Origin: Phyllobates terribilis
Taxonomy: Eukaryota
Assembly (NCBI RefSeq): GCF_046119375.1
Contig: NW_027362763.1
Location: 903,650,001-903,714,000 of the forward strand
Direction: 5' to 3'
DNA: 64,000 nt
Shown here piece after piece: positions 4,377 to 56,371 of the stretch. The notes beneath the pieces were generated by a model. The model saw nothing but the letters and a program-made list of their open reading frames with translations, did not search any database and had not been told where the DNA came from. Position numbers and translations under genes: made by a program. How positions within the stretch are numbered: the stretch's first letter is position 1; each line of letters starts with the position of its first letter.

Positions 4377-4758
4377 CTAAAGCAAAATATTCTATGTACG
4401 TAATATGGCATAAAATGCGACATAATACTCAACTGCAAAAAAAAATTTGACATGGTGTCCAAACTTTGCAATCTCCTTATAAGTATATTAATGAATTTAA
4501 AAGTTACAACATATTACTTTTAGTGGAGAATTTACAGCAGAATCACAGCATAAATATTATCTAGTAGTTAATATTTATATTTAAGCACAATATAAGTGAT
4601 TTGATTAATTATTTTCTTAATAATATTGCATATCAATGCTACTTTTCTACTACAAACACTTTTAGTAGCACTAACATTTTCTTCAAGCAATCATCTATTG
4701 AGAAATATAATGACTATCATTAAGGGGGTGTCTAGTCTAGGAAGATACATCTACATAC

Positions 4759-16363: not shown

Positions 16364-17993
16364 CAGTACAGACCAAAAGTTTGCACACACCTTCTCATTT
16401 AAAGATTTTTCTGTATTTTCATTACTATGAAAATTGTACATTCACACTGAAGGCATCAAAACTATGAATTAACACATGTGGAATTATATACTTAACAAAA
16501 AAGTGTGAAACAACTGAAAATATGTCTTATATTCTAGGTTCTTCAAAGTAGCCACCTTTTGCTTTGATGACTGCTTTGCACACTCTTGGCATTCTCTTGA
16601 TGAGCTTCAAGAGGTAGTCATCGGAAATGGTTTTCACTTCACAGGTGTGCCCTGTCAGCTTTAATAAGTGGGATTTCTTGCCTTATAAATGGGGTTGGGA
16701 CCATTAGTTGTGTTGTGCAGAAGTCAGGTGGATACACAGCTGATAGTCCTACTGAATAGACTGTTAGAATTTGTATTATGGCAAGAAAAAAGCAGCTAAG
16801 TAAAGAAAAACGAGTAGCCATCATTACTTTAAGAAATGACGGTCAGTCAGTCCGAAAAATTGGGCAAACTTTGAAAGTGTCCCCAAGTGCAGTTGCAAAA
16901 ACCATCAATCGCTACAAAGAAACTGGCTCACATGAGGACCGCCCCAGGAAAGGAAGACCAAGAGTCACCTCTGCTTCTGAGGATGAGTTTATCTGAGTCA
17001 CCAGCCTCAGAAATCACAGGTTAACAGCAGCTCAGATTAAAGACCAAGTCAATGCCACACAGAGTTCTAGCAGCAGACACATCTCTACAACAACTGTTAA
17101 GAGGAGACTTTGTGCAGCAGGCCTTCATGGTAAAATAGCTGCTAGGAAACCACTGCTAAGGACAGGCAACAAGCAGAAGAGACTTGTTTGGGCTAAAGAA
17201 CACAAGGAATGGACTTTAGACCAGTGGAAATCTGTGCTTTGGTCTGATGAGTCCAAATTTGAGATCTTTGGTTCCAACCACCGTGTCTTTGTGCGACGCA
17301 GAAAAGGTGAACGGATGGACTCTATATGCCTGGTTCCCACCATGAAGCATGGAGGAGGAGGTGTGATGGTGTGGGGGTGCTTTGCTGGTGACACTGCTGG
17401 GGATTTATTCAAAATTGAAGGCATAATGAACCAGCATGGCTACCACAGCATCTTGTAGTGGCATGCTATTCCATCCGGTTTGCGTTTAGTTGGACCATCA
17501 TTTATTTTTCAACAGAACAATGACCCCAAATGCACCTCCAGACTGTGTAAGGGCTATTTGACCAAGAAGGAGAGTGATGGGATGCTACGCCAGATGACAT
17601 GGCCTCCACAGTCACCAGACCTGAACCCAATCGAGATGGTTTGGGGTGAGCTGGACCGCAGAGTGAAGGCAAAAGGGCCAACAAGTGCTAAGCATCTCTG
17701 GGAACTCCTTCAAGATTGTTGGAAGACCATTTCCGGTGACTACCTCTTGAATCTCATCAAGAGAATGCCAAGAGTGTGCAAAGCAGTCATCAAAGAAAAA
17801 GGTGGCTACTTTGAAGAACCTAGAATATAAGACATATTTTCAGTTGTTTCACACTTTTTTGTTAAGTATATAATTCCACATGTGTTAATTCATAGTTTTG
17901 ATGCCTTCAGTGTGAATGAACAATTTTCCTAGTCATGAAAATACAGAAAAATCTTTAAATGAGAAGGTGTGTCCAAACTTTTGGTCTGTACTG
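16364..17993 (+). mobile_element. Tc1/mariner DNA transposon, DD38E (Intruder-type) spacing, 1,630 bp
   Basis: Long (about 200 bp) TIRs starting CAGTACAGACCAAAAGTTTG, TA TSD, transposase in between. Confidence 0.92.
16778..17830 (+). pseudogene. Tc1-like transposase pseudogene
   Basis: Single frame MARKKQLSKEKR...WSDESKF...FQQNNDPK...SPDLNPIE. In-frame stops at 16994-16996 (TGA) and 17456-17458 (TAG); second catalytic D changed to N; 38 residues between it and the E. Confidence 0.9.
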
Positions 17994-21190: not shown

Positions 21191-22336
21191 TGACGCGCCC
21201 CCTGGGCCATGTTGTTAGGGATACCCGGAGCCGGATCAGATGGGGGTTGTAGTCTCCGAGTGGCTGTGACCCGGTCCGTGCCCAGGGTGTCAAACTCAGT
21301 GTGCGGCAGTCCTTGCAGATGTTATTAGTGTCGACTACGCCACCCGTTGATTTGCGGTCAAAAGGCCGCCGCTGCAGGATGGTCCGCTGAGGCTGGTGGT
21401 GTGTGTGCAGCTGTGGTAGTATAACCCCCAACGGGAGGGGTATAGCCTCAGGGGGTCAGACGTGGAGGATGGTGGTTGTGAAGGTGCAGCAAGGAGACTC
21501 AGAGGCATGAAATGCAGTTCAGGGTTTTTACTCACTGGTGTTGCTCGGGTCACTCTGTACAGCAGTGACCACCCAAGCCGTGCTGCGTCCACCAGGTGCG
21601 GGACTCGGTCAACTCCCGGGCAATTCCTGAGTATGGTCCTGAGCTCCCTTCTTCTCTCTCTCTCTGGCCGTTCCCACCAGGGATCCACCTGTGTCCGGCT
21701 CCCTCGGGTCTCTTGGTGGTTGAACCTTCTCTGGCTTCCCTGACCCTATGCTCGGTGTGCCATTCTGGTGGATTTGGTGAGGGTCGTGGCAAATCTTGCC
21801 CACGGCCTCCGGTTCCTGGCTAAGGTTTGCTTTGGCCTCCGCCAGCTTGGGATCCGGTACCCTTTTGCCGACCCTTCACCCTTATCAGTTCTCATACGGG
21901 CTCTTGGGGTCCCCTCTCGTCCTGCGCCTCTGGGTCCCTCTTCCTTCTCCTCTCCTGGAGTTACTGCTGACTCACAGACTGACTGACTGACTGACCCTGT
22001 CCTAAGATGGTGCCCACCTTATATACTCCCTCTATGTGTGAGCTCAGGTGACCAGCACCCAATGAGCTCCTACATTTACCCAGACTACTCCCCCTATCTG
22101 CCCCTACACTACTGGGATGTTCCACCCCCCTCCCACTCCAGCCAGGGACAGACGCTGTCGTACCTGCACATATACTGGTGGGAGTACCGTTGTTCTGTCC
22201 CCCAGAAATGGGATGTATGTAGTGCATGCAGCCTACTAGCTCAGTTCCATACTCCATCCTTACCCGGGAGTGGAATACCACACCTCTGGGTTGAGGTGCA
22301 ATACCCCTGTAGCAGCCGAATCCTCAGGGTGCTACA
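21191..22336 (-). repeat. 3' LTR of element A
   Basis: Direct repeat of 24693-25838 with about 5 substitutions seen by eye; preceded on the minus strand by the PPT CCAGGGGGGAA. Confidence 0.92.
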
Positions 22337-22780
22337 TTCCCCCCTGGTAAATCACAGCACGTCCTCGGGCTGTAAAAGAATAAAAACATCCAAAAACATA
22401 CGATTTTTTTTCATAACATAAACATATAAAACATATAAACATTATCAGCAGCATAAACTTTTCATATAAACCTTCTTGTTCCTCCGGCCACGGTGCAACT
22501 TGTGACCGGGTAAAGTGCAACAGTCTCTTCTGGAAAAACACAGTTCCTTACAAAACCAGTAGGGGGCGCCTTAGAAAGCGCAACTATGTACAAAAGGGGA
22601 ATATGGCCGCTCTCAGTCCTCGGCCAGTGGGGAAAAAGAATGGCTGTTCACAGTCCTCAGCCTGTTAGGGGATAGGGACACACGGGTATTCACTTGCTGG
22701 TCCCGACGGGGACTACACTTTGGTAGCAGCAGTTTTTGTACCCACACGGGTAACTATTTACATATTCTATTTACAGTTCA

Positions 22781-24712
22781 TCAGTGGCGGTATGCTCTTG
22801 GCTGAGGGTAATCTTTAGACCCGTCCGGGTCCTCTTGATCCTCCTCACCCCGTAGCTCCTCCTCAGTCAGTCTATGCACATGCAGGGCATACGGGCCCTT
22901 GGCGCACTGATGCCGGGTGAAGGTGACCTCATCACCCAGGTATAGGTCACGACCTCTGTGTCCCTCCGGTAGGTGGGACTCGACATCACTTCTGGTCACG
23001 AAGACGTCGCCGGGGGTGTGATGGTCTCTGATGAAGCCCCAACCGTGCTGCAACTGGAATTTAATTACAGTCCCGGTGGCACGGGGACCGTGGGCTGCAC
23101 GGGGGTTCCTTCGGGTCCGGCTCTTTTGTTCTGCACTCTTTACTTGCAGCCGCTCCTCGCAGACCCGCCTCTCTTTCCTCTCTCTGTCGAAGACCTCTAA
23201 CTGCTGCCGGCAGCACTCCGCACGCTCAGCTGCGGCCGCCCGGGTCTCCTCGGTGAATCCCATTAGGTCCTCACCGGTAAAGTCCCACTCGAACTGGGCT
23301 TCCTCCAACGAGAGTGGGGTGATCTTGGCGGGCGCCGGAGCCGGGATCAGGGGCTCATCCATGGGTCTTTCTTTCCGGAGTCGGGGATGGTGGTACTCCG
23401 GTGGCCACACAGGGGGCTGCCCATCCGGGCAGGTGTCTTCACCCAGGTGTGGCGCTGTGGACGTTGAGGGCGCGGTGGTGGTAACGGCGCCCGGGCTCAC
23501 CAGGCCTTGCGACCAGGCCTGGGGCACCCTGAAGGTGAAGGGCACCGTGAAGACGGCGGCGCCCGGGGTTACTCGGCCCAGCGACCAGGCCGGTGGCATG
23601 ATGGTGGTAGAGGGCGCAGTGAAGACGGCGGCGCCCGGGGGTACTCGGCCCTGCGACCAGGCCGGTGGCGCTTCCTGCTTGGCCGCGCTCAGGGTTGAGG
23701 CGCGTGACGTTACAGGGGGCGTGGCCGCAGCTCCGGCCGCTTGAGGCCTAGCTTGGAGCGATGACGCAGCGGCTACGGGAACGGTGAGTGGGGCTTCGGG
23801 CTCTGCGACGGGGAGCTGGGGCAGGTTTACGGCTTCTGGGCACGGCATGTTGTCGTCCCCATTACCTGCCTTCATCTCTTCGGCTCCCTCCGCGGCGTCG
23901 TCTCCGGCCGTCGTCCATCCTTCGCCGTCCTCAGAGGTGGACCTGCTCCTCGCTGCGGGTGGCATGCTTCACTGGCGGGCTCCGGCCTGCCGGGCCATCT
24001 CTCGGGTCCACTCCGCCAGTGTTTCCTGCTGCACCCGGGCCATCCTTCGTGCTAGGCCCTCCAGCGCGGTCTGTGCACGCTCCCGATCTCCGGGGAGCTG
24101 CGCCAGGATCTCCAGCAGGCCTTCTGGAGTGGCGGCCTGCAACAGGCTCCTGACCACTGGGTCAGTGCTGCCTGACTCTCCCTCCATCTCCGGGTGTGTT
24201 CTCTCTAGACTCTTCCAAGCTGCTCCCATCTTCACTCTTTTGTTCTGTATCCGCCCACATTGGGGGTCGTCCTGGGGCAACTTTGTGATTGCCAGTTCCA
24301 GGGGCAGTTCCCTCACGCTGATGGACATATCAATCATCACAGTCTCTGCTGGTGGGGGCGGTTTCCACTTTTGGCGCCATTTTCGGTCCTGGCCCACGAT
24401 GTGAGGTGGCCTCTTGCCATCCTTTGGCACGCCCATAATGGCGTCCGCTCTGCAAAGGCGGGAAATCTTCTCTGATGGCGGGAATCGCTTCCCAGTGGCG
24501 GGAAACACTGCAGATGGCGGGAAAAGACTGCAGATGACGGGCAAATGGCGGGAACTGATCCGAGATGGCGTCCGATGGCGGGGACCCTCTGGAACCGGCG
24601 GGAGACTTCTTTTTGAGGTAAATGCGAACTTTTCTTCAGGCACGCAGTACCCGGTGGTTGCGGGCACGTGATCCTGCCGACTACGCCAAAGTTGACGCGC
24701 CCCCTGGGCCAT
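22781..24712 (-). pseudogene. Element A ORF: Pro/Ala-rich and coiled-coil protein with C-terminal cold-shock domain, split by one in-frame TGA
   Basis: ORFs 23969..24712 and 22781..23965 are in the same frame, separated by TGA at 23969-23971, and colinear with the 701-aa ORF of element B. The cold-shock domain GTVIKFQLQHGWGFIRD...GDVFVT...LYLGDEVTF...KGPYALHV lies at 22868-23074. Confidence 0.85.
24671..24688 (-). promoter_or_regulatory. Primer-binding site (tRNA-Ser) of element A
   Basis: Minus strand TGGCGTAGTCGGCAGGAT, complementary to the 3' end of vertebrate tRNA-Ser(AGA/TGA) (...ATCCTGCCGACTACG-CCA), located 4 nt after the LTR. Confidence 0.88.
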
Positions 24713-25838
24713 GTTGTTAGGGATACCCGGAGCCGGATCAGATGGGGGTTGTAGTCTCCGAGTGGCTGTGACCCGGTCCGTGCCCAGGGTGTCAAACTCA
24801 GTGTGCGGCAGTCCTTGCAGATGTTCTTAGTGTCGACTACGCCACCCGTTGATTTGCGGTCAAAAGGCCGCCGCTGCAGGATGGTCCGCTGAGGCTGGTG
24901 GTGTGTGTGCAGCTGTGGTAGTATAACCCCCAACGGGAGGGGTATAGCCTCAGGGGGTCAGACGTGGAGGATGGTGGTTGTGAAGGTGCAGCAAGGAGAC
25001 TCAGAGGCATGAAATGCAGTTCAGGGTTTTTACTCACTGGTGTTGCTCGGGTCACTCTGTACAGCAGTGACCACCCAAGCCGTGCTGCGTCCACCAGGTG
25101 CGGGACTCGGTCAACTCCCGGGCAATTCCTGAGTATGGTCCTGAGCTCCCTTCTTCTCTCTCTCTCTGGCCGTTCCCACCAGGGATCCACCTGTGTCCGG
25201 CTCCCTCGGGTCTCTTGGTGGTTGAACCTTCTCTGGCTTCCCTGACCCTATGCTCGGTGTGCCATTCTGGTGGATTTGGTGAGGGTCGTGGCAAATCTTG
25301 CCCACGACCTCCGGGTCCTGGCTAAGGTTTGCTTTGGCCTCCGCCAGCTTGGGATCCGGTACCCTTTTGCCGACCCTTCACCCTTATCAGTTCTCATACG
25401 GGCTCTTGGGGTCCCCTCTCGTCCTGCGCCTCTGGGTCCCTCTTCCTTCTCCTCTCCTGGAGTTACTGCTGACTCACAGACTGACTGACTGACTGACCCT
25501 GTCCTAAGATGGTGCCCACCTTATATACTCCCTCTATGTGTGAGCTCAGGTGACCAGCACCCAATGAGCTCCTACATTTACCCAGACTACTCCCCCTATC
25601 TGCCCCTACACTACTGGGATGTTCCACCCCCCTCCCACTCCAGCCAGGGACAGACGCTGTCATACCTGCACATATACTGGTGGGAGTACCGTTGTTCTGT
25701 CCCCCGGAAATGGGATGTATGTAGTGCATGCAGCCTACTAGCTCAGTTCCATACTCCATCCTTACCCGGGAGTGGAATACCACACCTCTGGGTTGAGGTG
25801 CAATACCCCTGTAGCAGCCGAATCCTCAGGGTGCTACA
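24693..25838 (-). repeat. 5' LTR of element A
   Basis: TG...CA termini, TATATAA box and AGTAAA polyA-like signal on the minus strand; followed by ACTT and the PBS. Confidence 0.92.
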
Positions 25839-26836
25839 CTAACATCACAGAACACTTGGAGAACAATTTGCATACTGCGCAGAAGTTGTTAAAACTTGTT
25901 TTTTTTTATAGAGTTTTTATTACTGTTGCTATGCAAAGATGTGTTATGAAATGTCTTTTTAGCCCCAATAAAGCTGTTATAGCATACAGGGTCATGAAAA
26001 GTGATGACAGGTTCCTGTTAAGGAAAGATAAAAATGTTATAGTCACAAGCTCCGTCATATGAGTCACACAAAATAAAAATACCACGGATAGAACCTATTA
26101 GCTTCTTCTTTACCCTACAGCGTTTACTGAAACAATACATTCCCTGCACACAAAAAACAATTGAAACTGACAGCAAATGGGCAACATTCAAAAAGCTTTG
26201 GAAATATTTATCATACTCAGATATGACACAACCTAATTGGCTACAATTAGATTTAACGCTACATCCATGTTATTGAGTTGCTTCATCTACCTTGTCATTA
26301 TTTGGGACATGCATCTTGTGCAGCAGCTGCAGGATGGTGCAGGGGCTTATGTGAACCTTACTAGGGTTATGCCAAAACAGTTCCACCAATCACACACACA
26401 ACCAGGCTCAGACTGACCCACAGGGCACAAGTGAATACCCCGGTCGGTCTCTGTGTAGGAATAAACTCTCAGTCCCTCACCCCTCTACAAGAGCAGTGCT
26501 TGGCAAAGTACATTTAATGCAATATATAAAGAGGGAATGTAGAGCATGTAATCATTTATTTAATAAATTACCAAGTTTATTAAAATGTAGATGCATATAG
26601 TAAAGTGGCAGACCATGTTGTATCCACCCTCCCAGACGCCATTTACTTGATATTGCCACAGTGGTCCCTTCCTCCCTAATCATCTGGCAGCTTCTTGCTG
26701 TTGCCTAAAGTGACTGTCCAGTACTGATATTAATAGCCTATCCTGAGGAAAGTTCATCAATACAGATTGGCAGTGGGTGAGACACCCACAGTTCCGTCCA
26801 TATTCATCTAAAGCTAGTTACCCGAAAACTTCAAAT

Positions 26837-27917
26837 TTGTACGCTGATGACACCCAGATCTACCTCTCTGGCCCAGACGTCACCTCTCTGCTATCCAGAA
26901 TCCCAGCATGTCTAGCAGCCATATCCTCCTCCTTCTCCTCTCGCTTCCTCAAGCTCAATGTGGAAAAAACTGAACTCATCCTCTTTCCTCCATCTCACAT
27001 ATCTTCTCCACCTGATCTTTCTATCACAATAAATGACATCACACTTTCCCCTGTAACGGCAATCCGCTGCATCGGAGTAACCCTTGACTCTGCCCTGTCC
27101 TTCAAACCCCACATCCAAGCTCTCACCACCTCCTGTCGCCTCCAGCTTAAAAATATTTCCACAATTCATCCTTTCCTCAACCCTCACTCTACTAAACTGC
27201 TTGTGCATGCCCTCATCATCTCCCACCTCGACTACTGCAACATCCTCCTTTGTGGCCTACCTGCTAACACTCTCACACCCCTCCAGTCCATCCTTAACTC
27301 TGCTGCGCGACTGGTTCAAATCTAGCCTCGCTACTCCTCTGCTACTCCCCTTTGCAAATCTGTCCACTGGCTCCCAATTGCCCAGCGTAACCAGTTCAAA
27401 CTACTAACACTGACCTACAAAGTCATCCATAACCTCTCTCCTCCGTACATCTCTGAACTAATCTCTCGATACATTCCCTTACATAATCTCCGGTCCTCCC
27501 AAGACCTCCTTCTCTCCTCCACACTTATTCATTCCTCACCCAATCGCTTCCAAGATTTCTCCCGAACATCCCCCATCCTATGGAATTCTGTGCCTCAACA
27601 AGTCTGATTATGTGCTACATTTGAATCCTTCAGACGGAACCTGAAAACCCATCTCTTCAAACAAGCTTACAGCCTGCCATGACCTTGCTTGCTGCCACCT
27701 AAACAACACCGGAACTACTGCAACCCCTCAACCTACTGTCTCCTTCTCTGTTCCTGTAGATTGTAAGCCCGCAAGGGCAGGGCCCTCTTCCCCCTGTATC
27801 AGTCAATCATTGATAGTTTGTTTACTGTAAGAGATATTTGTAATTGGTATGTAACCCTTTCTTATGTACAGAACCATGGAATCAATGGCGCTATATAAAT
27901 AAATAATAATAATAATA
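26837..27917 (+). mobile_element. 5'-truncated L2/CR1-clade LINE (RT C-terminus and 3' tail)
   Basis: LYADDTQIYL...FLKLNVEKTELILFP...ISHLDYCN RT motifs, in-frame TAG at 27323-27325, 3' end GGCGCTATATAAATAAA(TAA)n. Confidence 0.88.
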
Positions 27918-29528: not shown

Positions 29529-30134
29529 TTTATAAGCCTTAGTAGGGCATGTGGGCAGGTGATATTATTTTGGGACAAACCTTTATAAAAAAAAAAAACC
29601 AGATGCCCGGCCTTGGGAATAATAAATTAAATTAAAAAATAATTACTAAAATTCTAAAACAGTCACATATTTAGAAAGATTAACAGGTGTCAAGTCAGAA
29701 ATGTGAAAAATGTTATTTGGCTTTTTCAAAACACAGTAACATAGCATAAGACAAGCAAAATACATCTACAATCACTACACTTTGCATTATAAACATTATG
29801 TATGCCAACCTATGGTAATGCACAATCTGGCTTTGCTCCCAGTAAATGTATGCTTCACAAGGGATAGTTTAATGGAAGTGACTGAATAGACTGAATTAAC
29901 AGGTCTATTCATTTTCAGACAACTTATTTCAGTTTTAGATGTTGCTCATGCTAAGGCTATGTTCACACATCATATTTTTTTTTGCGTCACAAATCTGCAG
30001 CAAAACCTGATCACTCCAGGGAGGTTTGCTGCAGATTTTTCTGCCAGTTTTAGTGCTTTTTTTATGCATTTTGGTGCATTTTTTCAGCGTTTTTTTCACT
30101 GTTCTTCTTGTCCTTCTGTCTCCTTTTATGCATG

Positions 30135-31339
30135 TGTAGCACCCTGAGGATTCGGCTGCTACAGGGGTATTGCACCTCAACCCAGAGGTGTGATATTCCA
30201 CTCCCGGGTAAGGAAGGAGTGTGGAACTGAGCTCAGATAGACTGCATGCACTACATACATCCCATTCCAGAGGAGCAGGCCGACGGTACTCCCACTTAGA
30301 AATGTGCAGGTACAACCGAGCCTGTTCCTGGCTGGAGTGGGAGGGGGGTGGTACATCCCATGTAGTGTAGGGGCAGATAGGGGGAGCAGTCTGGGTAGTG
30401 ATAGGAGCTCATTGGGTGCTGGTCACCTGAGCTCACACATAGAGGGATATATAAGGAGGGCACCAACTTAGATCAGGGTCAGACGCTGAGAACAAGTCAG
30501 TTGGAGAGGAGAGAGAAGGAAACAGCAGCCCTGGAGAGAGAGAGAGTGGAGCAGAGAAAGACCCAGAGGGGGAAGACTGAAGGGACCCAAGAACCCAAAT
30601 TAGAGCACCGGGTGAGGAGTCAGCAAGAGGGTACCGGAACCCAAGCTGGTGGGGGCAAAGACATTCCCCAGCCAGAGACCGGAGACCGTGGGCAGTGTCT
30701 GTCACGGTCACCCACCACATTCACCCCGAAGGCACACCACATGAAGGGTCAGGGAACCCAGGGCCAAGGGTGTCCCAAAAGAAGGCCCGAGGGAGCTGGA
30801 CCTAGGTGAATCACTGGTGGGGACGGCTGAAGAAAGGACAGAGGGAGAGCTCAGGGCCACGCTCTGGACTTGTTTGGGGGTTGGCCGGATCCAGGACCTG
30901 GTGGACGCAGCACGGCTCGGGTGGTCACTAGCAGCTGGAGTGACCAGTACAACATCAGCAGTAAGTAAACACCCTTAACTGCACAACCCGAGTCTGTCTT
31001 CATTGCCGGCTGCATCGCACCACCACAACCCCCATCCTCTGCGCCTGTCCCCTCTGAGGCTATACCCCTCCCGTTGGGGGTTATCTCACCAAGCTGCGCA
31101 CCCACCATCAGCCTCAGCGGACCCTGCAGCAGCGGCGGCCACAGTGACCGCATCACAACGGGTGGCGTAGTCGACACAAAAGAACTTTAGTAACATCTGT
31201 AAAGCTGCCACATCACACTGAGCTTGACGCCCTGGGCACGGGACCGGGTCACAGCCGCTCGGAGACTACAACCCCCCATCTGATCCGGTGCCGGGTATTC
31301 CCCTCAAAAAAAAAGGAATATGTCCCAGGGGGCGCGTCA
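30135..31339 (+). repeat. 5' LTR of element B
   Basis: TG...CA termini, TATA-like GATATATAAGG near 30445 and AGTAAA near 30964. Appears identical to the 3' LTR (the ORF-track translations of both copies are identical). Confidence 0.93.
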
Positions 31340-33425
31340 ACTTTGGCGTAGTCGGCAGGATTACGTGCCCGCAACACCCGGGTACTGCGTGCCTGAAGAA
31401 AAGTGCAAGTTTACCTCAGAAAGAAGTCTCCCGCCGGTTCCGGAGGGTCCACGCCATCGGACTCCATCACCAGTCATTTCCCGCCGATTGTCCGCCATTT
31501 CCAGCTTGTTCCCGCCATCTGCAGAGTTTCCCGCCACTGGGCGACGCTTCCCGCCAAAACCGCAGATTTCCCGCCTTGGAAGAGCAGCGGACGCCATTAT
31601 GGGCGTGCCAAAGGAGGGCAAGAGGCCACCTCCCATCGTGGGCCAGGACAGAAAATGGCGCCAAAAGTGGAAACCGCCCCCACCAACAGAGACTGTGATG
31701 CTGGAGGTGTCTGTCAGCGTGAAAGAACTCCCCCTGGAGCTGACAGTCACCGAGTTGCCCCGGGACCGCCCTCGAAGTGGGAGGAGACGAAAGAGAAGAG
31801 AAAAGATGGGTGTCGCTTGGAGCAGTCTGGAGCGAGCGCACCCGGAGGCAAGAGGTCTAACAAGGAGTAGCGGAGAAGCTCACCCGGAGATGGAAAGCAA
31901 GCAGGACAGCACCGGCCCGCTGGCCAGGAGTCTGCTAGAGACCGAGGAAGGAGGGCAGAGCAGCACCGGCCCGCTGGCCAGGAGCCTGCCGGAAGCCGAG
32001 CAGAGCAGCACCGACCCGATGGTCAGGAGCCTGCTAGAGTCCACAACCCCGCTAGGTCTAGCGGAGATCCTAGCGCAGCTCCCCCGAGACCGGGAGTGTG
32101 CACAAACTGCCCTGGAGGGCCTCGCAAGGAGGATGGCCCGGGTACAGCGCGAGATACTGGCGGAGTGGGGCCGGGAGAGGACCCAGCAAGCAAAGACCAG
32201 TCAACGGAGCACGCTACCCTGGAAGAGGAAGCAGACCGCCTCTGAGGATGGCGCAGGAGGACCCAAGGCCGGAGACGGCGCCGAGGAGGGAGCCGAACGC
32301 ATGGAGGCAGGTAAAGGGGACGCCTATACCCCAAGCCGTGACACCGCTTACCTGCCCCAGCTCCCCGTCGCAGAGCCCGAAAGTCCCCCTGCTGTGCCCG
32401 TAGCCGCCAGGTCACCGCCATGGACTAGGCCCCGACCGGAAGCCGCCGCAGCGACCCCTGTGACGTCACGCGCCCCGACCCGGGGCGTGACCAAGCAGGA
32501 AGTACCACCAGCCTGGTCGCAAGGCCTAGTACCCCCGGGCGCCGCAATACCAACAGCGCCCCCTACCTCCGCGGAGCCTCCGGCCTGGCCGCAAGGCCAG
32601 GTAGCCCAGGGCGCCGCCGTCCTAACGGTGCCCTTCACCTTCCAGGTGCCCCAGGCCTGGCCGCAAGGCCTGGGCAACCCGGGCGCCACCACCACCGCGC
32701 CCGCGCCCGCAATACCTAGGGTGCCACACCTGGGGGAGGACCTCTTCGGCCAGCTCACATGGCCGGACGGGCGGCCCTTCATCTGGCCCGAAGGGTACCC
32801 TGAGCTGGAGCGGCAGCAAAGACTAGGGCCCTTGTGTGAGCCCCTAATCCCGGCTCCGAAGCCCGTGGCTCGGGTCTCGCCTCCTCTAGCAGAAGCCCAA
32901 TTCGTGTGGGACCCCACGGGAGAAGATTTGATGGGGTTCACCGGAGAAACTCGGGCAGCCGCAGCTGAACGTACAGAGTGTTGCCGTCAACAGCTGGCAG
33001 AGTTTAAGAGAGAACGGGAGGAGAGGCGGGTCAGAGAACAACAGGCCCAAATCCAGAGCGCGGAGCAGAAGAGCCGGACTAGGAGGAACCCCCGTGCAGC
33101 GCATTGTCCCCGCACCATCGGGACAGTGATAAAGTTCAACCCGCAGCATGGGTGGGGCTTTATTCGGGACCGTAACAACCGCGGTGACGTTTTTGTGACC
33201 CGCAGAGACGTCGAGTCCCACCTGCCGGAAGGTCACAAAGGCCGTGACCTCTACGTCGGAGACGAGGTCACTTTCACCCGGCACAAGTGTGCCAAAGGAC
33301 CTTACGCCCTCCACGTACACCGCTTGACGGAGGAGGAGTTGCGGTACGGGGAGGAGGAGTCAGAGGACCCGGACGGGTCTGAAGAAACATCATATCAAGA
33401 AAGAGCAGGAGGAAGACGCCGTTGA
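31320..33425 (+). CDS. Element B ORF (701 aa, or 608 aa from the internal ATG at 31599): basic N-terminal region, helical segments, three 24-aa Pro/Ala repeats, coiled coil, C-terminal cold-shock domain and acidic tail
   Basis: Uninterrupted ORF. Residues GTVIKFNPQHGWGFIRDRNNRGDVFVTRRDV...LYVGDEVTF...KGPYALHV (33120-33326) align with the cold-shock consensus GTVKWFN..KGFGFI...DVFVH...L.EG..VEF....KGP.A.NV. Confidence 0.9.
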   Translation: MSQGARQLWRSRQDYVPATPGYCVPEEKCKFTSERSLPPVPEGPRHRTPSPVISRRLSAISSLFPPSAEFPATGRRFPPKPQISRLGRAADAIMGVPKEGKRPPPIVGQDRKWRQKWKPPPPTETVMLEVSVSVKELPLELTVTELPRDRPRSGRRRKRREKMGVAWSSLERAHPEARGLTRSSGEAHPEMESKQDSTGPLARSLLETEEGGQSSTGPLARSLPEAEQSSTDPMVRSLLESTTPLGLAEILAQLPRDRECAQTALEGLARRMARVQREILAEWGRERTQQAKTSQRSTLPWKRKQTASEDGAGGPKAGDGAEEGAERMEAGKGDAYTPSRDTAYLPQLPVAEPESPPAVPVAARSPPWTRPRPEAAAATPVTSRAPTRGVTKQEVPPAWSQGLVPPGAAIPTAPPTSAEPPAWPQGQVAQGAAVLTVPFTFQVPQAWPQGLGNPGATTTAPAPAIPRVPHLGEDLFGQLTWPDGRPFIWPEGYPELERQQRLGPLCEPLIPAPKPVARVSPPLAEAQFVWDPTGEDLMGFTGETRAAAAERTECCRQQLAEFKREREERRVREQQAQIQSAEQKSRTRRNPRAAHCPRTIGTVIKFNPQHGWGFIRDRNNRGDVFVTRRDVESHLPEGHKGRDLYVGDEVTFTRHKCAKGPYALHVHRLTEEELRYGEEESEDPDGSEETSYQERAGGRRR
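31344..31362 (+). promoter_or_regulatory. Primer-binding site (tRNA-Ser) of element B
   Basis: TGGCGTAGTCGGCAGGATT is a 19-nt complement of the tRNA-Ser 3' end, with an ACTT spacer after the LTR CA. Confidence 0.9.
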
Positions 33426-33893
33426 GTGCGGCAGAGCAGGAGCTGTAAATAGTTACCCAATCGGGGTATATAGAAACTGAAACTGTTGCTGCTAAAATAG
33501 TCCCCGTTGGGACCAGGGAACTGTTTACCCGTTAACCCCTTCATCCTACAGGCTGAGGACTGTGAGCAGCCATTCCCTACCCTCTACCTGGCCGAGGACT
33601 GAGAGCGGCCAACTTTCAACTTCCCCTGTATATAGTTGCGCTTCCTAAAGCGCCCCCTACCGGTTTTATAGAAAACCAGTTTTTCTAAGAGACTGTCGCA
33701 CTTTTCCCGGACACACGTTGCACAGTGTCCGGAGGAGGAACCAGAGACAAGAGAAGTCTACGAGAATGTTTATATAAAAAGTTTTATATATATATAATGT
33801 TTATATGTTTTATATGTTCATATAAAAATTTTGTATGTTTTGGTGTTTTATGTCTTACAGCCCGAGGACGTGCTGTGATTTACCAGGGGGGAA

Positions 33894-35098
33894 TGTAGCA
33901 CCCTGAGGATTCGGCTGCTACAGGGGTATTGCACCTCAACCCAGAGGTGTGATATTCCACTCCCGGGTAAGGAAGGAGTGTGGAACTGAGCTCAGATAGA
34001 CTGCATGCACTACATACATCCCATTCCAGAGGAGCAGGCCGACGGTACTCCCACTTAGAAATGTGCAGGTACAACCGAGCCTGTTCCTGGCTGGAGTGGG
34101 AGGGGGGTGGTACATCCCATGTAGTGTAGGGGCAGATAGGGGGAGCAGTCTGGGTAGTGATAGGAGCTCATTGGGTGCTGGTCACCTGAGCTCACACATA
34201 GAGGGATATATAAGGAGGGCACCAACTTAGATCAGGGTCAGACGCTGAGAACAAGTCAGTTGGAGAGGAGAGAGAAGGAAACAGCAGCCCTGGAGAGAGA
34301 GAGAGTGGAGCAGAGAAAGACCCAGAGGGGGAAGACTGAAGGGACCCAAGAACCCAAATTAGAGCACCGGGTGAGGAGTCAGCAAGAGGGTACCGGAACC
34401 CAAGCTGGTGGGGGCAAAGACATTCCCCAGCCAGAGACCGGAGACCGTGGGCAGTGTCTGTCACGGTCACCCACCACATTCACCCCGAAGGCACACCACA
34501 TGAAGGGTCAGGGAACCCAGGGCCAAGGGTGTCCCAAAAGAAGGCCCGAGGGAGCTGGACCTAGGTGAATCACTGGTGGGGACGGCTGAAGAAAGGACAG
34601 AGGGAGAGCTCAGGGCCACGCTCTGGACTTGTTTGGGGGTTGGCCGGATCCAGGACCTGGTGGACGCAGCACGGCTCGGGTGGTCACTAGCAGCTGGAGT
34701 GACCAGTACAACATCAGCAGTAAGTAAACACCCTTAACTGCACAACCCGAGTCTGTCTTCATTGCCGGCTGCATCGCACCACCACAACCCCCATCCTCTG
34801 CGCCTGTCCCCTCTGAGGCTATACCCCTCCCGTTGGGGGTTATCTCACCAAGCTGCGCACCCACCATCAGCCTCAGCGGACCCTGCAGCAGCGGCGGCCA
34901 CAGTGACCGCATCACAACGGGTGGCGTAGTCGACACAAAAGAACTTTAGTAACATCTGTAAAGCTGCCACATCACACTGAGCTTGACGCCCTGGGCACGG
35001 GACCGGGTCACAGCCGCTCGGAGACTACAACCCCCCATCTGATCCGGTGCCGGGTATTCCCCTCAAAAAAAAAGGAATATGTCCCAGGGGGCGCGTCA
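33894..35098 (+). repeat. 3' LTR of element B
   Basis: Immediately follows the PPT, ends GCGCGTCA and is followed by TSD CATG. Confidence 0.93.
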
Positions 35099-36867
35099 CA
35101 TGTACATAAAGTTTCCCAAAAAGAACCCCATTCTATTTGGCATCAAAAACGCTGAAACAAATTTTGATGCATTTTTGGTGCGTTTTTTAAGCGTTTTTTT
35201 TCACCATCCATTACTTCCTATGGGTGAAAAAACACAGAAAAAATGTTAAAAGAAGTGACATGCTCTATTTTCCAAAAACAATGCAAGGCACAAAATCCTG
35301 AACAAAAAAAAACCATGATGTGTGAACTAAGAATTCTGAAATCTGGTACTGCAAAAGGCAGCAGAAAATTTGCATAAAAAAAGGCATTAAAAAACGTTGA
35401 AAAACCATGACGTGTGAATATAGCCTAATGGTCTTTGCACAGTGTTCTCTGAAGGGACAAGAGTCTGTTCTTTGAATCTCTATATAGTACGTATTCCTAT
35501 CAGATATATTATTTTTTATTCACTTTCTGGAGTTTGTAGGGTTAGGAAACCTATGAGTTATATACAGCCACGAATGCCAAATCAATTGATGGGTTACAAC
35601 TCCTAGACAAAGAGTCAACATTTATATAGTAATTTCAAACCACCTGATCTCATTATATAAAGAGCTAAGTAGGCAAGCTGCTAAAATATGTACTCTTACC
35701 CATTCAAAGTGCCAACCACTACTTCTCCCTTGTGTCTAACCTGGTGCTTACTGCCTGTTGTTAAGTGTAATCTATCAAGCAGTGAAGATACCAAAACAGA
35801 TTACAGAAAGTAGGGATGGGTCATTGTCTATCTGCTTCTTCTTTCCTTTCTGTCAAACTGCATACAGTTGTAACAGGGATGCTGGCTATTAGTTTGAGCC
35901 TTTCAAACTACTAATCAAACCTTGTGTAATGCATGATAGAAAGTTAAGGAAAGAAAATTTCAGCACCTATAGTGCTAGAGGACAGGGATGAAAACTAGTA
36001 TGTGCTCCAAAAGTAATTTTAAATTATTGTTGATGAGGGCAGCATGCTACAAGTGTTATGTGAAAAGGCAGGTATGTGTAATATCTAGTGATGAGAGAGC
36101 ATGCTCGTTACTCCAGATTTACGAGCATGCTCGGGTGTTTTCCAAGTATCTTCAGCGTGCTCGGGTATTATGTTTTAGTCACTCTGCGCTCATGATTTGC
36201 GACTGTTTGACAGCTTTAATACATGTGAGGAATGCCTGTTTCTTAGGCATTTCTCACATGTATTAAAGCTGTCAAACAGTCGCAAATCATGAGCACGGAG
36301 TGACTGAAACATAACACCCAAGCACGCTGAAGATACTCGGCGAGCACCCGAACATGCTCGCTGAAAGGGTTAATAGAACATACTCGCTCATCACTAGTTA
36401 AAACTTCTGCAGAAGAGGAAAAGCCATTAAACCCCCTCAAGTGGTAGGGCCTGGTTGTGACCACAGCTCCTGTTGCCCCTATTTGTACACCTCTGCCTGG
36501 ATCAGGAACTGGACTGAAGAAATAAAGATGCTAAACTATATGTTTGTTGTAAGTTTTATGTTCTGTACACTTTAGGAAATGACTTTGTAAACACATTAAA
36601 CAGCTGCAGGAGAATACCCACTGAACCTAACAAGCACCCATATTACAGCATGGCGTCACTCCACTTTAATGGAACAGAGAAATTGGTGAAAAAACAAGAA
36701 TAATCTTACACATTAATAGCTTCCTTGTCTCTCATTGCAATTTTAACATTCCAACATATGTTGTCAATAAGAAACACATGAGTTATTTGTTCTTACAGAT
36801 GAACAATAGTCTAAATGATACCAGAGGGAGAAAAATGACAGAAGAACATTTGTGAAACCATACTCAC

Positions 36868-37488
36868 CACAACTAAGGTTGCTTTCTGCTTTTCTTGCCC
36901 ATGGTGGGATGTTCCATAAGTCGTTTTCCCAATTTATAACATTTCCCTTTATTTCACAGCTGAGGTTTGCAAGAGTACGTGAATCCATTGCAAAGTCCCA
37001 AAGACGGAAGTTGTAAATATCCCCTTGTAGTGGCTCTATTCCAGAACTGCAGGAGCCCAGTGTTAAATTCCCATTACCTGGAATGGAAAGGTCTTTCGCG
37101 TCTGGACAGGAAACGGCTTTGTAGCTATTTTTTGTGCTCACAAATACATGATCTGAACTACTATTCCAGATAACACACAGCTGTTGAAATGATTCTGTAA
37201 AGAAGTCTGTACTGCCATCTAAAAGCAGGGCAGGATCAAGAATGCATGGAACATCCAAGACAGTCAACACATGTCCATAAGCTTCTTTTCCAAAGCTTAA
37301 ACGGTCTTTGTTTGAGGTTTGGTAAGAAAAAGCCTTCCAGTTCTCTTTGCTATTGTTCGTTTTGGTAGCCTCAAAGCAAATAGTTAATTGTTTTAAAAGG
37401 GGAACAGATACTTTCGATGACAAAGAGACAAGACCTGAACTTTGGTTTTGTGGAATAGTGACTTTTTGGTTTTGCAACGACACAGCGA
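36868..37488 (-). CDS. Same adhesion GPCR, pentraxin/LamG-like (PTX) exon (621 bp, phase 1-1)
   Basis: Acceptor ttttttcatag| and donor |gtgagt. Translates as VAVSLQNQKV...LTICFEATK...WKAFSY...QQLCVIWN...GDIYNFRLWDF...KGNVINWENDLWNIP...KAESNLSCG, matching the ADGRG6 PTX exon (VAVSLRNQKV...GDIYNFRLWNF...KAESNLSCG). Confidence 0.93.
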
Positions 37489-39803
37489 CTATGAAAAAAA
37501 AAAGAAAATAGAAATTAATTCCAAAATCATGAAGCAAATTAACATTACATTTTCAGGAATAATCTATCAATTGGTGGTGAAGCAATATGAATAAATCCTT
37601 ATATTAATTAACAAACAACTTATATGTTCACCATAGAATATTCTTTTAATTGATATACTTATAGAGAAGGTATTGCTACTTCTTTAAAGGGGTTGTACTA
37701 TTAGGACAATTATAGCTCATATGTCCCATTTGTCCAAATGAACATCATAGTGATGGTCCTTTGCTCCGGCTAACCATCTATTAATAAAAGTGAGGAGCTG
37801 CTGTAAAAGAGGACTATGGAATAAAACATTTCTCCAGCAGTGACTGATGTAGATGAAATGTGCTTCTGGAGAGATAACAGTTGATTGCGGGGGATTTCAG
37901 ACTTTGAACCTCTAAGGTCCAAGCAAATTTTACTCTTAAGAACCACACATAATTGTTTTCTACATCAAGATTGTTACAATACAATGGTGTGCAGACTAAG
38001 AGCTCATGCAAGATATATTATTTTAGTGGATTGTCTTCCGTATATTACAATATTATAAAATTATTACATCAAGCTCTCGGCAGATCTTAAAGAGGTTGTC
38101 TCAAGCTCTTAATTGGTTAAAATGTCAAATAACTTGTAAAAACAAGCAACTTTGCAATCTACTTCATAGTAAAAATCGTTTCCACTCTCGACAGAGGGAT
38201 TTTTAATTTTATAGATTACTGCACGTTGACTAGGTTATTTGCCGCCCTGTAGTGGCCAGTTACCTAAGTAAGGAGCATGCAGCACTTATATGATCTATGT
38301 TAAAGAGCATGCATGTGCTGCTCTAAATCAGGCTGGTGAGAGCGTGGGACGGTGCTCAAGTTGACAAAAGCAGTTCAGCTATCTGCTGGTCTGATCTGTC
38401 AATCTTCACGAGTGCACTGCTCCCTGCAACCAGGAAGTCAGGAATTTGGGGAGCAGTGCGCTCATGAAGAAGAAGATTGGAACACTCCTTTAAAGGGGTT
38501 GTCCAGAAAAAATAATCTTTGTCCATGGGATGAAATATGTAAAAAATAACAAACTTAGCCATAATCACCTACCAGCATCTATCTGGATACATAGCAGGCC
38601 TCTCCATAGTCTGCACAGAGTGGGTGACGATTGGTGAGTATGGCCGAACTGACCTTTTTTTATCTTGCTCAGACAACCCGTTTAACTGCTGTGACGTGTG
38701 ACATTTACAACATAGGTTGTTAAGGAAAGTATGAAGCTGGCTCAGGAGCTGAACCTTTTTCATACCAAGCAGATGCCAGCTGTGTTTCATAGCTGGCATC
38801 TGCCTTTAACAGCAGCGACCATAATCTGCTGTGATCACTGCAGCTTAACCACTTATTAATTATTATGCCACTATTAATCTATGATGACGCGATTATGGTG
38901 AACCATATGAGGACTGGTGAAGGTACTGAAACTACCATCTAGGCCCTCCTAAGCTATCAAACTATTGCAAGCACAAGTCAATGACAAGACAAAAAAATAC
39001 AGTAAAAGTAAAAAAAAAGTTATAAAAAATAAAAAAAGTTAAACAACCCTGTTATTTCCCAATCAAAAGTAAAGAAATAAAAATAAATAAACATGTGTGG
39101 TATCATGATATAAAAAAGTCCAGTCTATTAAAATTTAAAATGGTTTAAATCAGATGTTAAACAAAAAAGAAAATAAAACGGAAGCGCTAGAATTTTCGTT
39201 CACTGCACTTTGCAAAAAAAATGCAAATAATAACATTCAAACTGTCAGATGTATCCCATAATTGTATCACTAAAAACATCAGCTCAGGGCCCCCAAAAAA
39301 GCCCCGACACATGGATAGATTTTTATTTTTCAACAAATTTCATAATTTTTTTCACAACTAATATGTAAAAAAAAATGGGACCAGTTTGGTATTGCTGTAA
39401 TCATACTAATCTGAAGAATCAGGTTGCCAGTTTATTTTTTCTATATAATGAATGTTGTAGAAACAAAACCCAATAAAAACAACTACTACTTTTTTTTTCA
39501 CAATTTCACTGCACTTGGATTTTTTTTTCCCGCTTTCCATTACATCCTATGGTAAAATGAATGCCAATATTCAAAACTGCAACTTGTCCTGCAAGAAAAA
39601 GCCTTCATATGGCTATGTCGATGGAAAAATATAAAACCGTTTTGGCTCTTGGAAAAAGGGGGAGAAAAAAAACAAAGGTGCTAAAAAGAAAAATTCCTGA
39701 GTCCTTAACGGCTTAACTTATATGTTGCCTTTTAGCAAACTTTTTCTTCAGTAATCTCAGGTAAGGTAAAGTAAATTCACAAACTGAATCCATTCATACT
39801 TAC

Positions 39804-49842: not shown

Positions 49843-50867
49843 TGTGGCACCCCAGGTCTGGTTGCCACAAATGTGATTAATCTTCGTCTGAGAGCAGGAG
49901 GGAGGTTCCCTGGTTAGGGACAATTAGCATGCAGCACCTCCTGTCCCAGGCCAGTAGGGGGAGCTGGCTGCCCTATAAAAGCTGGAACTGGGGCAGGGTT
50001 AGAGAGACCAGAACCCACTTCTGAAGTGACCAGAAGGGTTTCTTAGAGGAAGGGACAGGTCAGCAGCAGCTGAGGAGTCCGGGAGGCAGAGGAGAGACTG
50101 CAAGCCAGGGACAGAGGCGACGAGAGCCGGTCCTGGCAGAGAATCAATATAACCGGACATTGGGGTCCGAGGCTGTCCGGGTTATCATTCCCAGCAGCAA
50201 AGAACCAATCCGCGAGGGATTTCAGGTCCCTTGGCCTAAGAAGCCTGGAGGCTCCGCCACACAGAGGGACCAGTACCGCGAGGAGGAAGCAAAAGGTACC
50301 CAAGGCCCGAGTCGCAAGCCATACAGGCGAGAAATACACGGCCAGCTCAGGGACGTGGGCTATTACACCACGAAGAGGGGGATAGTCAGAAAGAGCATAG
50401 AGAGAACGGTAGGCCTACATACTCACCCTGACCAGTGGGGCTTCCCCGAATGCTCTCAGACACCCAGGCCCATTCCTAACCGGTACTACTGTTGGGTCAT
50501 TAATAACATCTACAATAAAGACCCAGAAATGTTTTGAAACGGGCTCTGAACTTTTACTATTGTGGCAGGCACTATCACCCCCAGCATCCACCTACACTGC
50601 CCTGAGGCCACACTCCTCCCGTGGGGAGTTATCCTACCCTAGAGCTGCACACCAACACCAGCCTCAGAGGTCTGCCTAGCAGCGGCGGTTATCCCTGACC
50701 GCAATCCATGGGTGGCGTAGTCGGACATTCACAAATCTATAAATAGGCTGCCACAACATTGGTCTGACCACCCTGAGCCACCGGACCGGGTTGCCACTAC
50801 TACCCCAATCAGCACCGTACACCAGAAGACCCGGTTTCGAGTACCCCACGGCCCAGGGGGTGAGTCA
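49843..50867 (+). mobile_element. Solo LTR (1,025 bp) of a related family
   Basis: TGTGGCACCCC...GGGGGTGAGTCA, TSD ATAC, TATAAAA and AATAAA present; U5 similar to the other LTRs. Confidence 0.88.
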
Positions 50868-54823: not shown

Positions 54824-56371
54824 CACTGCTCAAAAAAATAAAGGGAACACTTAAACAACAGAATATAACTCCAAGTAAATCAAACTTCTGTGAAATCAAA
54901 CTGTCCACTTAGGAAGCAACACTGATTGACAATCAATTTCACATGCTGTTGTGCAAATGGAATAGACAATAGATGGAAATTATTGTCAATTATCAAGACC
55001 CACAAAATAAAGGAGTGGTTCTGCAGGTGGGGACCACAGACTACATCTCAGTGCCAATGCTTTCTGGCTGATGTTTTGGTCACTTTTGAATATTGGTTGT
55101 GCTTTCACACTCGTGGTAGCATGAGACGGACTCTACAACCCACAGAAGTTGCTCAGGTAGTGCAGCGAATCCAGGATGGCACATCAATGCGAGCTGTGGC
55201 AAGAAGGTTTGCTGTGTCTGTCAGCGTAGTGTCCAGAGGCTGGAGGCGCTGCCAGGAGACAGGCCAGTACACCAGGAGACGTGGAGGGGGCCGTAGGAGG
55301 GCAACAACCCAGCAGCAGGACCTCTACCTCTGCCTTTGTGCAAGGAGGAACAGGAGAAGCACTGCCAGAGCCCTGCAAAATGACCTCCAGCAGGCCACAA
55401 ATATGCATGTGTCTGCACAAACGGTTAGAAGCCGACTCCATGAAGGTGGTATGAGGGCCCGACGTCCACAGATGGGGGTTGTGCTCACAGCCCAACACCG
55501 TGCAGGTCGTTTGGCATTTGCCACAGAACACCAGGATTGGCAAAGTCGCCACTGGTGCCCTGTGCTCTTCACAGATGAAAGCAGGTTCACACTGAGCACA
55601 TGTGACAGACGTGACAGAGTCTGGAGACGCTGTGGAGAGCGATCTGCTCCCTGCAACATCCTTCAGCATGACCGGTTTGGCAGTGGGTCAGTAATGGTGT
55701 TGGGTGGCATTTCTTTGGAGGGCCGCATAGCCCTCCATGTGCTCGCCAGAGGTAGCCTGACTGCCATTGGGTACCGAGATGAGATCCTCAGACGCCTTGT
55801 GAGACCATATGATGGAGCGATTGGCCCTGGGTTCCTTCTAATGCAGGACAATGCCAGACCTCATGTGGCTCATGAAGCTATGGACTGGTCCGCCCGTTCC
55901 CCAGACCAGAATCCGATTGAGCACATCTGGGACATCATGTCTCGCTCCATCCACCAACGTCACATTGCACCACAGACTGTCCAGGAGTTGGCGGATGTTT
56001 TAGTCCAGGTCTGGGAGGAGATACCACAGGAGACCATCCGCAACCTCATCAGGAGCATGCCCAGGTGTTGTAGGGAGGTCACACAGGCACGTGGAGGCCA
56101 CACACAATACTGTGCCTCATTTTGACTTGTTATAAGGACATTACATCAAAGTTGGATCAGCATGTAGTGTGTTTTTCCACTTTAATTTTGGGGGTGACTC
56201 CAAATCCAGGCCTCCATTGGTTAATAAATTTGATTTCCATTGATGATTTTTGTGTCATTTTGTTGTCAGCACATTCAACTTTTTATAGAACAAAGTATTC
56301 AATGAGAATATTTCATTCATTCAGATCTAGGATGTGTTATTTGAGTGTTCCCTTTATTTTTTTGAGCAGTG
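54824..56371 (+). mobile_element. Tc1/mariner DNA transposon, 1,548 bp, short TIRs
   Basis: 28-bp TIR CACTGCTCAAAAAAATAAAGGGAACACT with TA TSD. Confidence 0.92.
55121..56125 (+). CDS. Tc1-like transposase, open frame but with an apparent in-frame deletion in the catalytic domain
   Basis: [12 protein letters not shown]...LFTDESRF...LMQDNARPH...SPDQNPIE. Only 23 residues lie between the second D and the E, versus about 34 in typical Tc1 transposases. Confidence 0.8.

Follow-up and report, generated by a model that had tools for sequence, protein, structure and literature searches.

A cold-shock domain of probable YBX origin retained in non-autonomous Gypsy-type retrotransposons of the poison frog Phyllobates terribilis

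Why does a long open reading frame (ORF) lying between two identical long terminal repeats (LTRs) carry a cold-shock domain (CSD) near its end, where did this domain come from, and what could it do for the DNA that carries it? The question is raised by a 64,000 nucleotide (nt) stretch of the Phyllobates terribilis genome (10.57 billion bases; assembly GCF_046119375.1, contig NW_027362763.1, positions 903,650,001 to 903,714,000 of the forward strand), referred to below as the window. The ORF is part of an LTR element of 4,964 bp (window 30131-35102 including the target-site duplications, TSDs), a non-autonomous Gypsy-type LTR retrotransposon in which one unrelated ORF stands in for gag-pol. Purifying selection acts on the CSD and on the helix preceding it, and the domain was probably acquired long ago from a Y-box (YBX) gene of the host. 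The relevant features, with pN/pS standing for the ratio of nonsynonymous to synonymous differences per site, are the following:

30131..30134 (+): 5′ TSD CATG, repeated at 35099-35102
30135..31339 (+): 5′ LTR of 1205 bp, bounded by TG...CA; identity with the 3′ LTR is 100%
31160..31173 (+): repeat, inside the LTR, of the beginning of the primer-binding site (PBS), GGGTGGCGTAGTCG; autonomous relatives have it too
31340..31598 (+): leader, whose homologue in autonomous Gypsy elements is non-coding
31344..31362 (+): PBS of 19 nt, the complement of the tRNA-Ser(TGA) 3′ end with its CCA; the tRNA gene (L171) is in the same genome
31599..33425 (+): the single ORF, standing where gag-pol would be; 608 codons when counted from the ATG of 31599, 713 codons between stops (from 31284)
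32907..33095 (+): a conserved motif (WD..GE.LMGF), a long charged helix and an Arg-rich end, pN/pS 0.12-0.38 against ten other copies
33111..33323 (+): CSD, with RNP1 at 33147-33164, RNP2 at 33186-33200 and a 19-residue loop between strands 3 and 4
33324..33422 (+): acidic tail of 33 residues (12 D/E, 5 K/R), standing where YBX proteins have the C-terminal extension and basic tail
33885..33893 (+): polypurine tract (PPT) AGGGGGGAA, identical in autonomous relatives
33894..35098 (+): 3′ LTR, the pair being 100% identical
21191..25838 (-): second element, of a sister subfamily, LTRs identical at 1141/1146 positions, TSD TTAG, same PBS
22874..23077 (-): CSD of the second element, 83% identical to the first CSD, pN/pS 0.13 against it

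The features by which non-autonomous LTR elements are recognised, namely two LTRs bounded by TG...CA, a PBS, a PPT and a TSD, are all present in the window element. The 3′ part of its 5′ LTR is about 70% alike to the LTR of an autonomous Gypsy element, L142. Copies of the first 11 nt of the PBS lie in both LTRs (31160-31173 and 34919-34932), about 165 nt before the LTR end; in autonomous elements this motif, which is present in L102 and L142, co-varies with the PBS type. The ORF of the second element is interrupted by one in-frame stop at its middle. The same Gypsy group is further represented by LTR fragments or solo LTRs at window 1355-1617 (-), 50602-50723 (+) and 61677-61809 (-). TRIM/Helenus elements are defined as non-coding, shorter than 1 kb and provided with a tRNA-derived LTR (PMC10886601). 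A TRIM, Helenus or Ajax identity was rejected, as the window element is 4,964 bp long and coding, and there is no tRNA in the window.

The leader frame is open in the window element, from an ATG at 31320 inside U5, and the same frame of the autonomous Gypsy elements, treated below as the helper lineage, contains a stop. Since this stop is in frame and similarity to the helper leader ends near the ATG at 31599, the 608-residue protein starting there is the likely product. Peptide conservation over the PBS (WRSRQD) was rejected as evidence of coding, because it covers the PBS and leader, which are non-coding in the helper. The ORF contains no CCHC motif and has no Pfam match to Gag, PNMA or Pol, and tblastn with helper Gag and Pol queries matched none of nine CSD elements. 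Nor was capsid-domain similarity found in the ORF by Pfam or tblastn, the fold models covering the ORF behind its N-terminal 430 residues. The segment in front of the CSD is predicted to form a continuous helix of 45 residues, 45% of them E, R or K. A first-pass annotation of the window had placed the CSD at the C-terminus behind a coiled coil and an Arg-rich stretch. The latter is there (KSRTRRNPR, 33069-33095) and only 33 residues follow the CSD, but the helix has no heptad pattern (in the best register 5 of 14 a/d positions are hydrophobic), and a charged single helix fits the prediction better than a coiled coil. Dimer prediction for helix plus CSD gave no verdict either way (score 0.00), and a fold search with the same segment against viral structures returned matches to the CSD alone, with no Gag or nucleocapsid among the best 50 rows.

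The CSD itself, which the first-pass annotation had located at 33120-33326 (+), is borne out by the translation of this interval (GTVIKFNPQHGWGFIR...DVFVTRRDVESHLPEGHKGRDLYVGDEVTF), by a match to the Pfam CSD family (PF00313; 35 bits, cut-off 27) and by an AlphaFold2 model built from a 17-row alignment, which is a five-stranded barrel of the OB type with pLDDT 94.1. The closest structures to this model include CspC (Z 13.3, root-mean-square deviation 1.3 Å over 66 residues) and YB-1 (Z 12.3, 1.6 Å over 67 residues). The altered signatures described earlier, IKF for KWF and FVT for FVH, are seen in the alignment to YBX1. In NCBIfam the top match was the retron Se72 effector at 40 bits, below the cut-off of 82, which we read as generic CSD likeness.

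The window element is one of many. All 150 scored genome matches are 100% identical to it in the CSD, and 137 of them lie in open frames of at least 700 codons; these matches were chosen for identity from 36,811 loose first-look candidates, a number that is no copy number. Family-wide, the LTR pairs are 89% to 100% identical, so the family has been active in the past and is active currently, and its recent amplification is evident. Genome searches with divergent queries recovered many further CSD lineages, which form one clade (26 rows, support 99/98). The CSD cassette is found in four LTR groups, that of the window and those of L094, L191 and L195, which share no BLAST similarity with each other and each have 4-bp TSDs. 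The primers across these four backbones correspond to tRNA-Ser(TGA), tRNA-Ile(AAT) and two further PBS types (L094, L191, L195 and L065 being among the carriers), which we take to be Ser-like. The position of the CSD also differs by lineage: it is in the middle of the ORF in the L094 type and comes first in the L065 type, and one subfamily has lost the N-terminal ORF, its start ATG lying directly before strand 1 of a frame of 135 codons. It is the CSD that is the unit kept.

The closest named protein, 89% identical, is from Phyllobates terribilis. Of the 150 top-scoring entries in a set of 1.84 billion representative proteins, five were single-domain matches and 145 were multi-CSD proteins scoring by summing; all five came from four dendrobatoid species (Phyllobates terribilis, Ranitomeya variabilis, R. 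imitator and Anomaloglossus baeobatrachus), so that the family spans Dendrobatidae and Aromobatidae. Single-domain relatives scoring below 70.5 bits fall outside these best 150, so this is no bound on the taxonomic range. Three word-index protein searches gave poison-frog relatives only, among the matches listed.

Several individual copies deserve mention. Right behind the CSD of an older Ile-primer element, at L196 (G000:C1:39.86 Mb), sits a young window-subfamily copy (LTRs 99.9% alike); the young copy itself lacks the CSD region through an internal deletion. L176 (G000:C9:374391463-374391744, +) is a single-copy CSD relative with an intact frame of 261 codons, the next best being at most 55% identical among the 150 scored. 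An astacin gene of the same strand follows 41-44 kb downstream, and in a Ranitomeya imitator gene model (P0158) a CSD segment of 73% identity is joined to the matching astacin. We read L176 as an old orthologous insertion at a locus shared with Ranitomeya and as a candidate for domestication, neutrality being an alternative. L061, L089 and L090 (G000:C4:791.48-791.52 Mb, -) are three CSD ORFs clustered in tandem, with no Gypsy cis signals on their flanks; they are the sole family members with the RNP2 His, they make up the deepest family branch, and one of the three is broken. A role of this cluster as a functional donor gene is not supported, the pN/pS between its two intact ORFs being 0.70.

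Is the domain maintained by selection? For the CSD of 22 copies, dN/dS had a median of 0.15 and a maximum of 0.40, with no pair at or above 1, in the 61 of 231 pairs that were usable (dS 0.15-1.2; the pairs are not independent). In the three other LTR backbones CSD pN/pS was 0.12-0.29 in 22/22 pairs. Along the ORF, ten comparisons of pN/pS, which are uncorrected ratios saturated at larger distances, have shown the CSD (0.13-0.52) and the WD motif with its helix (0.12-0.38) to be the most constrained parts, the N-terminal and low-complexity parts reaching about 0.5-0.85; constraint on the low-complexity middle is weak. Both the CSD and the preceding helix are under purifying selection.

The origin of the CSD was approached through its loops, its profile matches and its phylogeny. 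Counted from the RNP2 His column to the GE/GD column, loop 3-4 has 19 residues in the window CSD, 18 in host YBX (2/2) and invertebrate YBX-like domains (4/4), 14 in host LIN28 (2/2), 12-13 in CSDE1 domains (4/4) and 12-15 in bacterial domains (9/9), which agrees with the YBX-length loop noted earlier. For the three loops L12/L23/L34 the pattern is 6/7/18 in YBX, 6/14/14 in LIN28, 5/7/12-13 in CSDE1 and 6/7/12-15 in bacteria. Within the family, 6/7/18 is found in 10/28 rows, all of them deep lineages, and 6/7/19 in 16/28 including the window copy, two rows having deletions; among host CSDs the 6/7/18 pattern is common to YBX alone. With a 17-row family profile the scores were 55-57 bits for YBX1/2, 41 for the best bacterial Csp, 20 each for LIN28B and CARHSP1 and 18 for CSDE1, and YBX was the best of three host classes for 28/28 family rows. 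The host YBX CSD is spread over four exons and the element CSD is intronless, as capture via mRNA predicts. On these grounds the CSD was probably captured from a host YBX mRNA. The cassette would then be YBX-derived without being a YBX protein: host YBX exon 5 continues after the CSD as GPGGVPVQGSKYAAD, and the element has neither this C-terminal extension nor the long tail.

A number of observations weigh against this origin. The YBX margin of the profile is partly due to loop length alone; a narrower family profile gave 47 bits for YBX and 44 for bacterial domains, and a single-sequence query 24 and 26. When all classes were compared pairwise, the best class was bacterial for 13/28 rows, YBX for 9/28 and protist-like for 6/28, the comparators having been pre-picked as top matches to the element profile, and the "protist-like" and most of the "bacterial" labels being a motif-based reading of unnamed proteins (only P0004 and P0157 are named). 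The CSD phylogeny proposed by the first-pass annotation, with YBX, LIN28, CSDE1 and bacterial Csp, did recover one family clade (99/98), but over its 70 columns this clade is long-branched and has no supported sister. Approximately unbiased (AU) tests reject no donor (YBX p 0.24, LIN28 0.24, bacteria 0.18, CSDE1 0.54, protist-like 0.47), and with short-loop lineages only, YBX and the element group at support 19/0. The first tree was built without the truncated or degenerate L116, L095, L051 and P0003, and the trees do not include CARHSP1/CSDC2. Thus, of the earlier suggestion of a captured YBX domain, the loop lengths and the family profile stand in favour, while the trees leave the donor open and bacterial Csp comes equal or first in single-sequence and fold searches, Foldseek included. 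These last results, together with the ESM Atlas, where bacterial CSD clusters alone were found at lead-level scores, would suit a bacterial or protist cold-shock gene gained by horizontal transfer, its YBX-length loop being convergent. The AU tests do not reject a bacterial origin (p 0.18 and 0.34), and an 18-residue loop occurs in 2/9 protist-like domains. However, it occurs in 0/9 bacterial domains, the broad profile favours YBX by 16 bits, no close non-frog single-domain relative is among the best 150 proteins, and an abundant germline host mRNA would be the simpler donor. We consider such a transfer, which bears on the origin only, quite unlikely, and retain capture from YBX mRNA as the preferred reading.

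Other CSD-related sequences were encountered in the genome. L111 (G000:C3:249519471, -) and L116 (G000:C2:926456089, -) are degenerate intronless CSDs with KW that fall outside the element clade and look YBX-derived; L111 is 38% identical to host YBX and has an 18-residue loop. L051 is a decayed YBX retrocopy. L031-L036 (G000:C1:734.43-734.45 Mb, -) belong to a CSDE1 retrocopy that is processed and in part duplicated, its open frames measuring 350-500 codons.

The binding face bears on whether the domain would still bind nucleic acid. YB-1 stacks bases via W65, F74, F85 and H87, helped by K64, R69, K118 and the C-terminal extension, which is required for stability and binding; the S102D substitution lowers its affinity for single-stranded DNA more than 40-fold (PMC7498358). 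Among 28 family domains, F74 is kept in 27 and F85 as F or Y in all 28, and the full W/F/F/H stacking set of RNP1/RNP2 is not found. The window CSD retains F74, F85 and K118. R88 was gained in 21 family domains, R89 in 20 and an aromatic residue at YBX position 121 in 26. Nucleic-acid binding therefore appears plausible, probably through a remodelled face. On the other side of the balance, W65 is gone in 28/28 domains and H87 in 26/28, being kept in two, both are lost in the window CSD, and its residue at position 102 is D; given these changes, binding may be weak or different.

As the window element encodes neither Gag nor Pol, we looked for relatives that do. Autonomous Gypsy elements of the same genome (L101-L108) encode a PNMA-type Gag, protease, reverse transcriptase (RT), RNase H and integrase, and have in common with the window element the LTR size, 4-bp TSD, PPT, LTR-internal PBS-like motif and leader motifs. 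Two more, L142 and L145, which encode PNMA Gag, RT, RNase H and integrase, have a PBS identical to that of the window element, with a 4-bp TSD in L142; they are 70% identical to it over 517 nt of U5, PBS and leader, and 79% identical to subfamily L072 over 390 nt. The CCHC knuckle of the helper Gag is present in L102, L106 and L145 and degenerate in L142. None of the ten autonomous loci (0/10) contains a CSD. This search covered the window backbone, the L094, L191 and L195 backbones lying outside it. From the identical LTRs, the TSDs and the many dispersed copies we infer that the window element is mobilised in trans by a helper; a point against is that pol is in pieces in L142 and L145, which mark the helper lineage rather than a demonstrated active helper.

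What, then, would the CSD do for a passenger of this kind? The ORF is presumably translated, and its CSD likely binds the element's own RNA, which would thereby be stabilised or delivered to a helper Gypsy particle able to copy passenger RNA lacking gag-pol. RNA would be contacted via the remodelled surface, with two stacking residues lost and R88/R89 and the aromatic residue at 121 gained. The action is expected to be mainly in cis, as dispersed copies would retain an intact domain only if it favours the encoding RNA or close kin. YB-1 is known to support HIV RNA metabolism (PMC6040738). We give about an even chance to the CSD being such an RNA-binding helper of its own transcript. In addition to the altered face, it counts against this reading that purifying selection could also come from trans action by a few source copies. 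No run labelled as RNA was listed for the stretch, which speaks neither for nor against expression. Contigs of four runs (one guessed RNA, two unknown, one guessed DNA) cover the element, and in three of these runs a contig matches the CSD with 0-1 differences; transcription cannot be read from contigs, and there was no GT-AG joint among the 15 listed.

Among the alternatives, the CSD might act in trans against silencing or on the host, by binding small RNAs or host mRNAs or by competing with YBX/FRGY2 in germ cells, to the benefit of the whole Gypsy family including helpers. The conservation of the remodelled face over the family would agree with this, the presence of the cassette in four dissimilar backbones with different primers is what a generally useful factor should give, and Gypsy is highly expressed in poison-frog ova (PMC6278860). 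We nevertheless regard it as unlikely: copies with broken ORFs could profit from a purely trans-acting factor as well, the autonomous relatives have no CSD, and a target for it is only hypothetical. Lower still we place two readings that we hold about equally improbable. One is masking of the FRGY2 type suggested by the first-pass annotation, in which the protein coats element RNA and stores it in oocytes as a translationally silent particle. Masking by FRGY2 needs a basic tail, and here a short acidic tail stands where YBX has its C-terminal extension and basic tail, and W65 and H87 are lost, which leaves the suggestion weak, with the YBX-type loop pattern and the masking of oocyte transcripts by FRGY2 (PMC7825780) on its side. 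The other is binding of the element's single- or double-stranded DNA (reverse-transcription intermediates or the LTR promoter) instead of RNA; no DNA motif or nuclear role is shown for it, and nucleocapsid and integrase come from the helper. Finally, the ORF was proposed to be a Gag-like structural protein with the CSD in place of zinc knuckles, packaging RNA and annealing tRNA-Ser. The C-terminal location of the CSD after a basic stretch in the window subfamily is what this would predict, but the ORF is devoid of CCHC, capsid, PNMA, Gag and Pol similarity, the PNMA-type Gag of the autonomous relatives has a zinc knuckle of its own and no CSD beside it, the CSD changes its position within the ORF between lineages, and one lineage is primed by tRNA-Ile. 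Such a role is largely refuted and very improbable; the CSD would be an accessory factor, not a nucleocapsid.

Some components of this system have precedents. CSDs are carried by 46 endogenous retroviruses (ERVs) of birds, which captured them several times (PMC12287698). Like the frog family, these are LTR retroelements with a captured host CSD, and two table rows of that report span 210 nt (70 codons), which would be the YBX length. Unlike it, they are retroviruses with RT, few copies and a variable CSD position, and the available text reports no selection or function for the CSD. The frog element is instead a Gypsy derivative with a CSD ORF for gag-pol, is highly amplified, and its CSD is about 32% identical to YBX and has a remodelled face. 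BARE2, Dasheng and soybean SNRE/SARE are likewise pol-less, bear the cis signals of an autonomous family, exceed 1,000 copies and undergo LTR swapping; the available part of the source (PMC4079214) names none of them as carrying a captured RNA-binding domain under selection. Xenopus 1A11 and Xretpos, LTR elements of a frog too, have a single ORF, lack pol and are expressed in embryos; 1A11 is described as Gag-like, the two have tens to hundreds of copies, and a CSD is not mentioned in the text available (PMC4585706).

Compared with YBX1/2/3 and FRGY2 (PF00313), the element CSD shares the fold, loops 6/7/18(19), F74, F85, D83, R101, K118 and the best profile match, and differs in its low identity, the loss of W65/H87, the missing C-terminal extension and basic tail, the lack of introns and a long N-terminal helix instead of the Ala/Pro domain. 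The PNMA-Gag Ty3/Gypsy elements of the same genome (L101-L108, L142, L145) resemble the window element in LTR size, 4-bp TSD, tRNA-Ser-type PBS, LTR-internal PBS-like motif, leader and PPT, and differ in that they encode Pol and a Gag with CCHC and have no CSD. A search of the open-licence literature gave no Gypsy or frog LTR element with a CSD, Repbase lying outside this search. CSD capture by bird ERVs, pol-less single-ORF LTR elements of frogs and high-copy passenger/helper pairs were thus already known; this analysis adds a test of whether the CSD stems from YBX, its presence in four backbones whose primers differ, selection in every one of them and a copy that is a candidate for domestication.

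Most gene captures by LTR elements are dead ends; here the captured host domain is kept under purifying selection. As it is selected in passengers that encode nothing else, and is kept over four LTR backbones and two frog families, the CSD should give the element a measurable advantage. This opens a way to study how non-autonomous elements vie for helper machinery and why CSDs get captured repeatedly, as in bird ERVs. It also bears on the unclassified repeat fraction of giant poison-frog genomes (39% unclassified in Dendrobates tinctorius; 10.1101/2023.11.06.565769). We speculate that a YBX domain was captured once in a poison-frog ancestor and became a retrotransposon-specific RNA-binding hitchhiker gene with a new face, which moved between Gypsy backbones and primers, lets pol-less passengers out-compete helpers for particles, helped to inflate 7-10 Gb genomes and was domesticated by the host at least once, at the astacin-adjacent locus shared with Ranitomeya; as a whole, this scenario is possible though rather doubtful. 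For annotation, thousands of CSD "genes" in poison-frog genomes are copies of the element, some of which have been merged with host genes in the models (P0002, P0158). P0002, a Phyllobates model fusing an element CSD to R3HCC1, is likely a mis-annotation or exonisation.

The remaining features of the window are of a more ordinary kind. A Ser/Thr-rich exon-like frame of 915 codons (window 4751-7498, -) and a pentraxin-like exon (window 36764-37552, -; Pfam 37.9 bits) are probably parts of one minus-strand host gene, with the elements sitting in its introns. Tc1/mariner transposase sequences, one intact-looking and one a fragment, and an RT fragment of a long interspersed nuclear element (LINE) are located at window 54926-56125 (+), 16997-17458 (+) and 26747-27325 (+).

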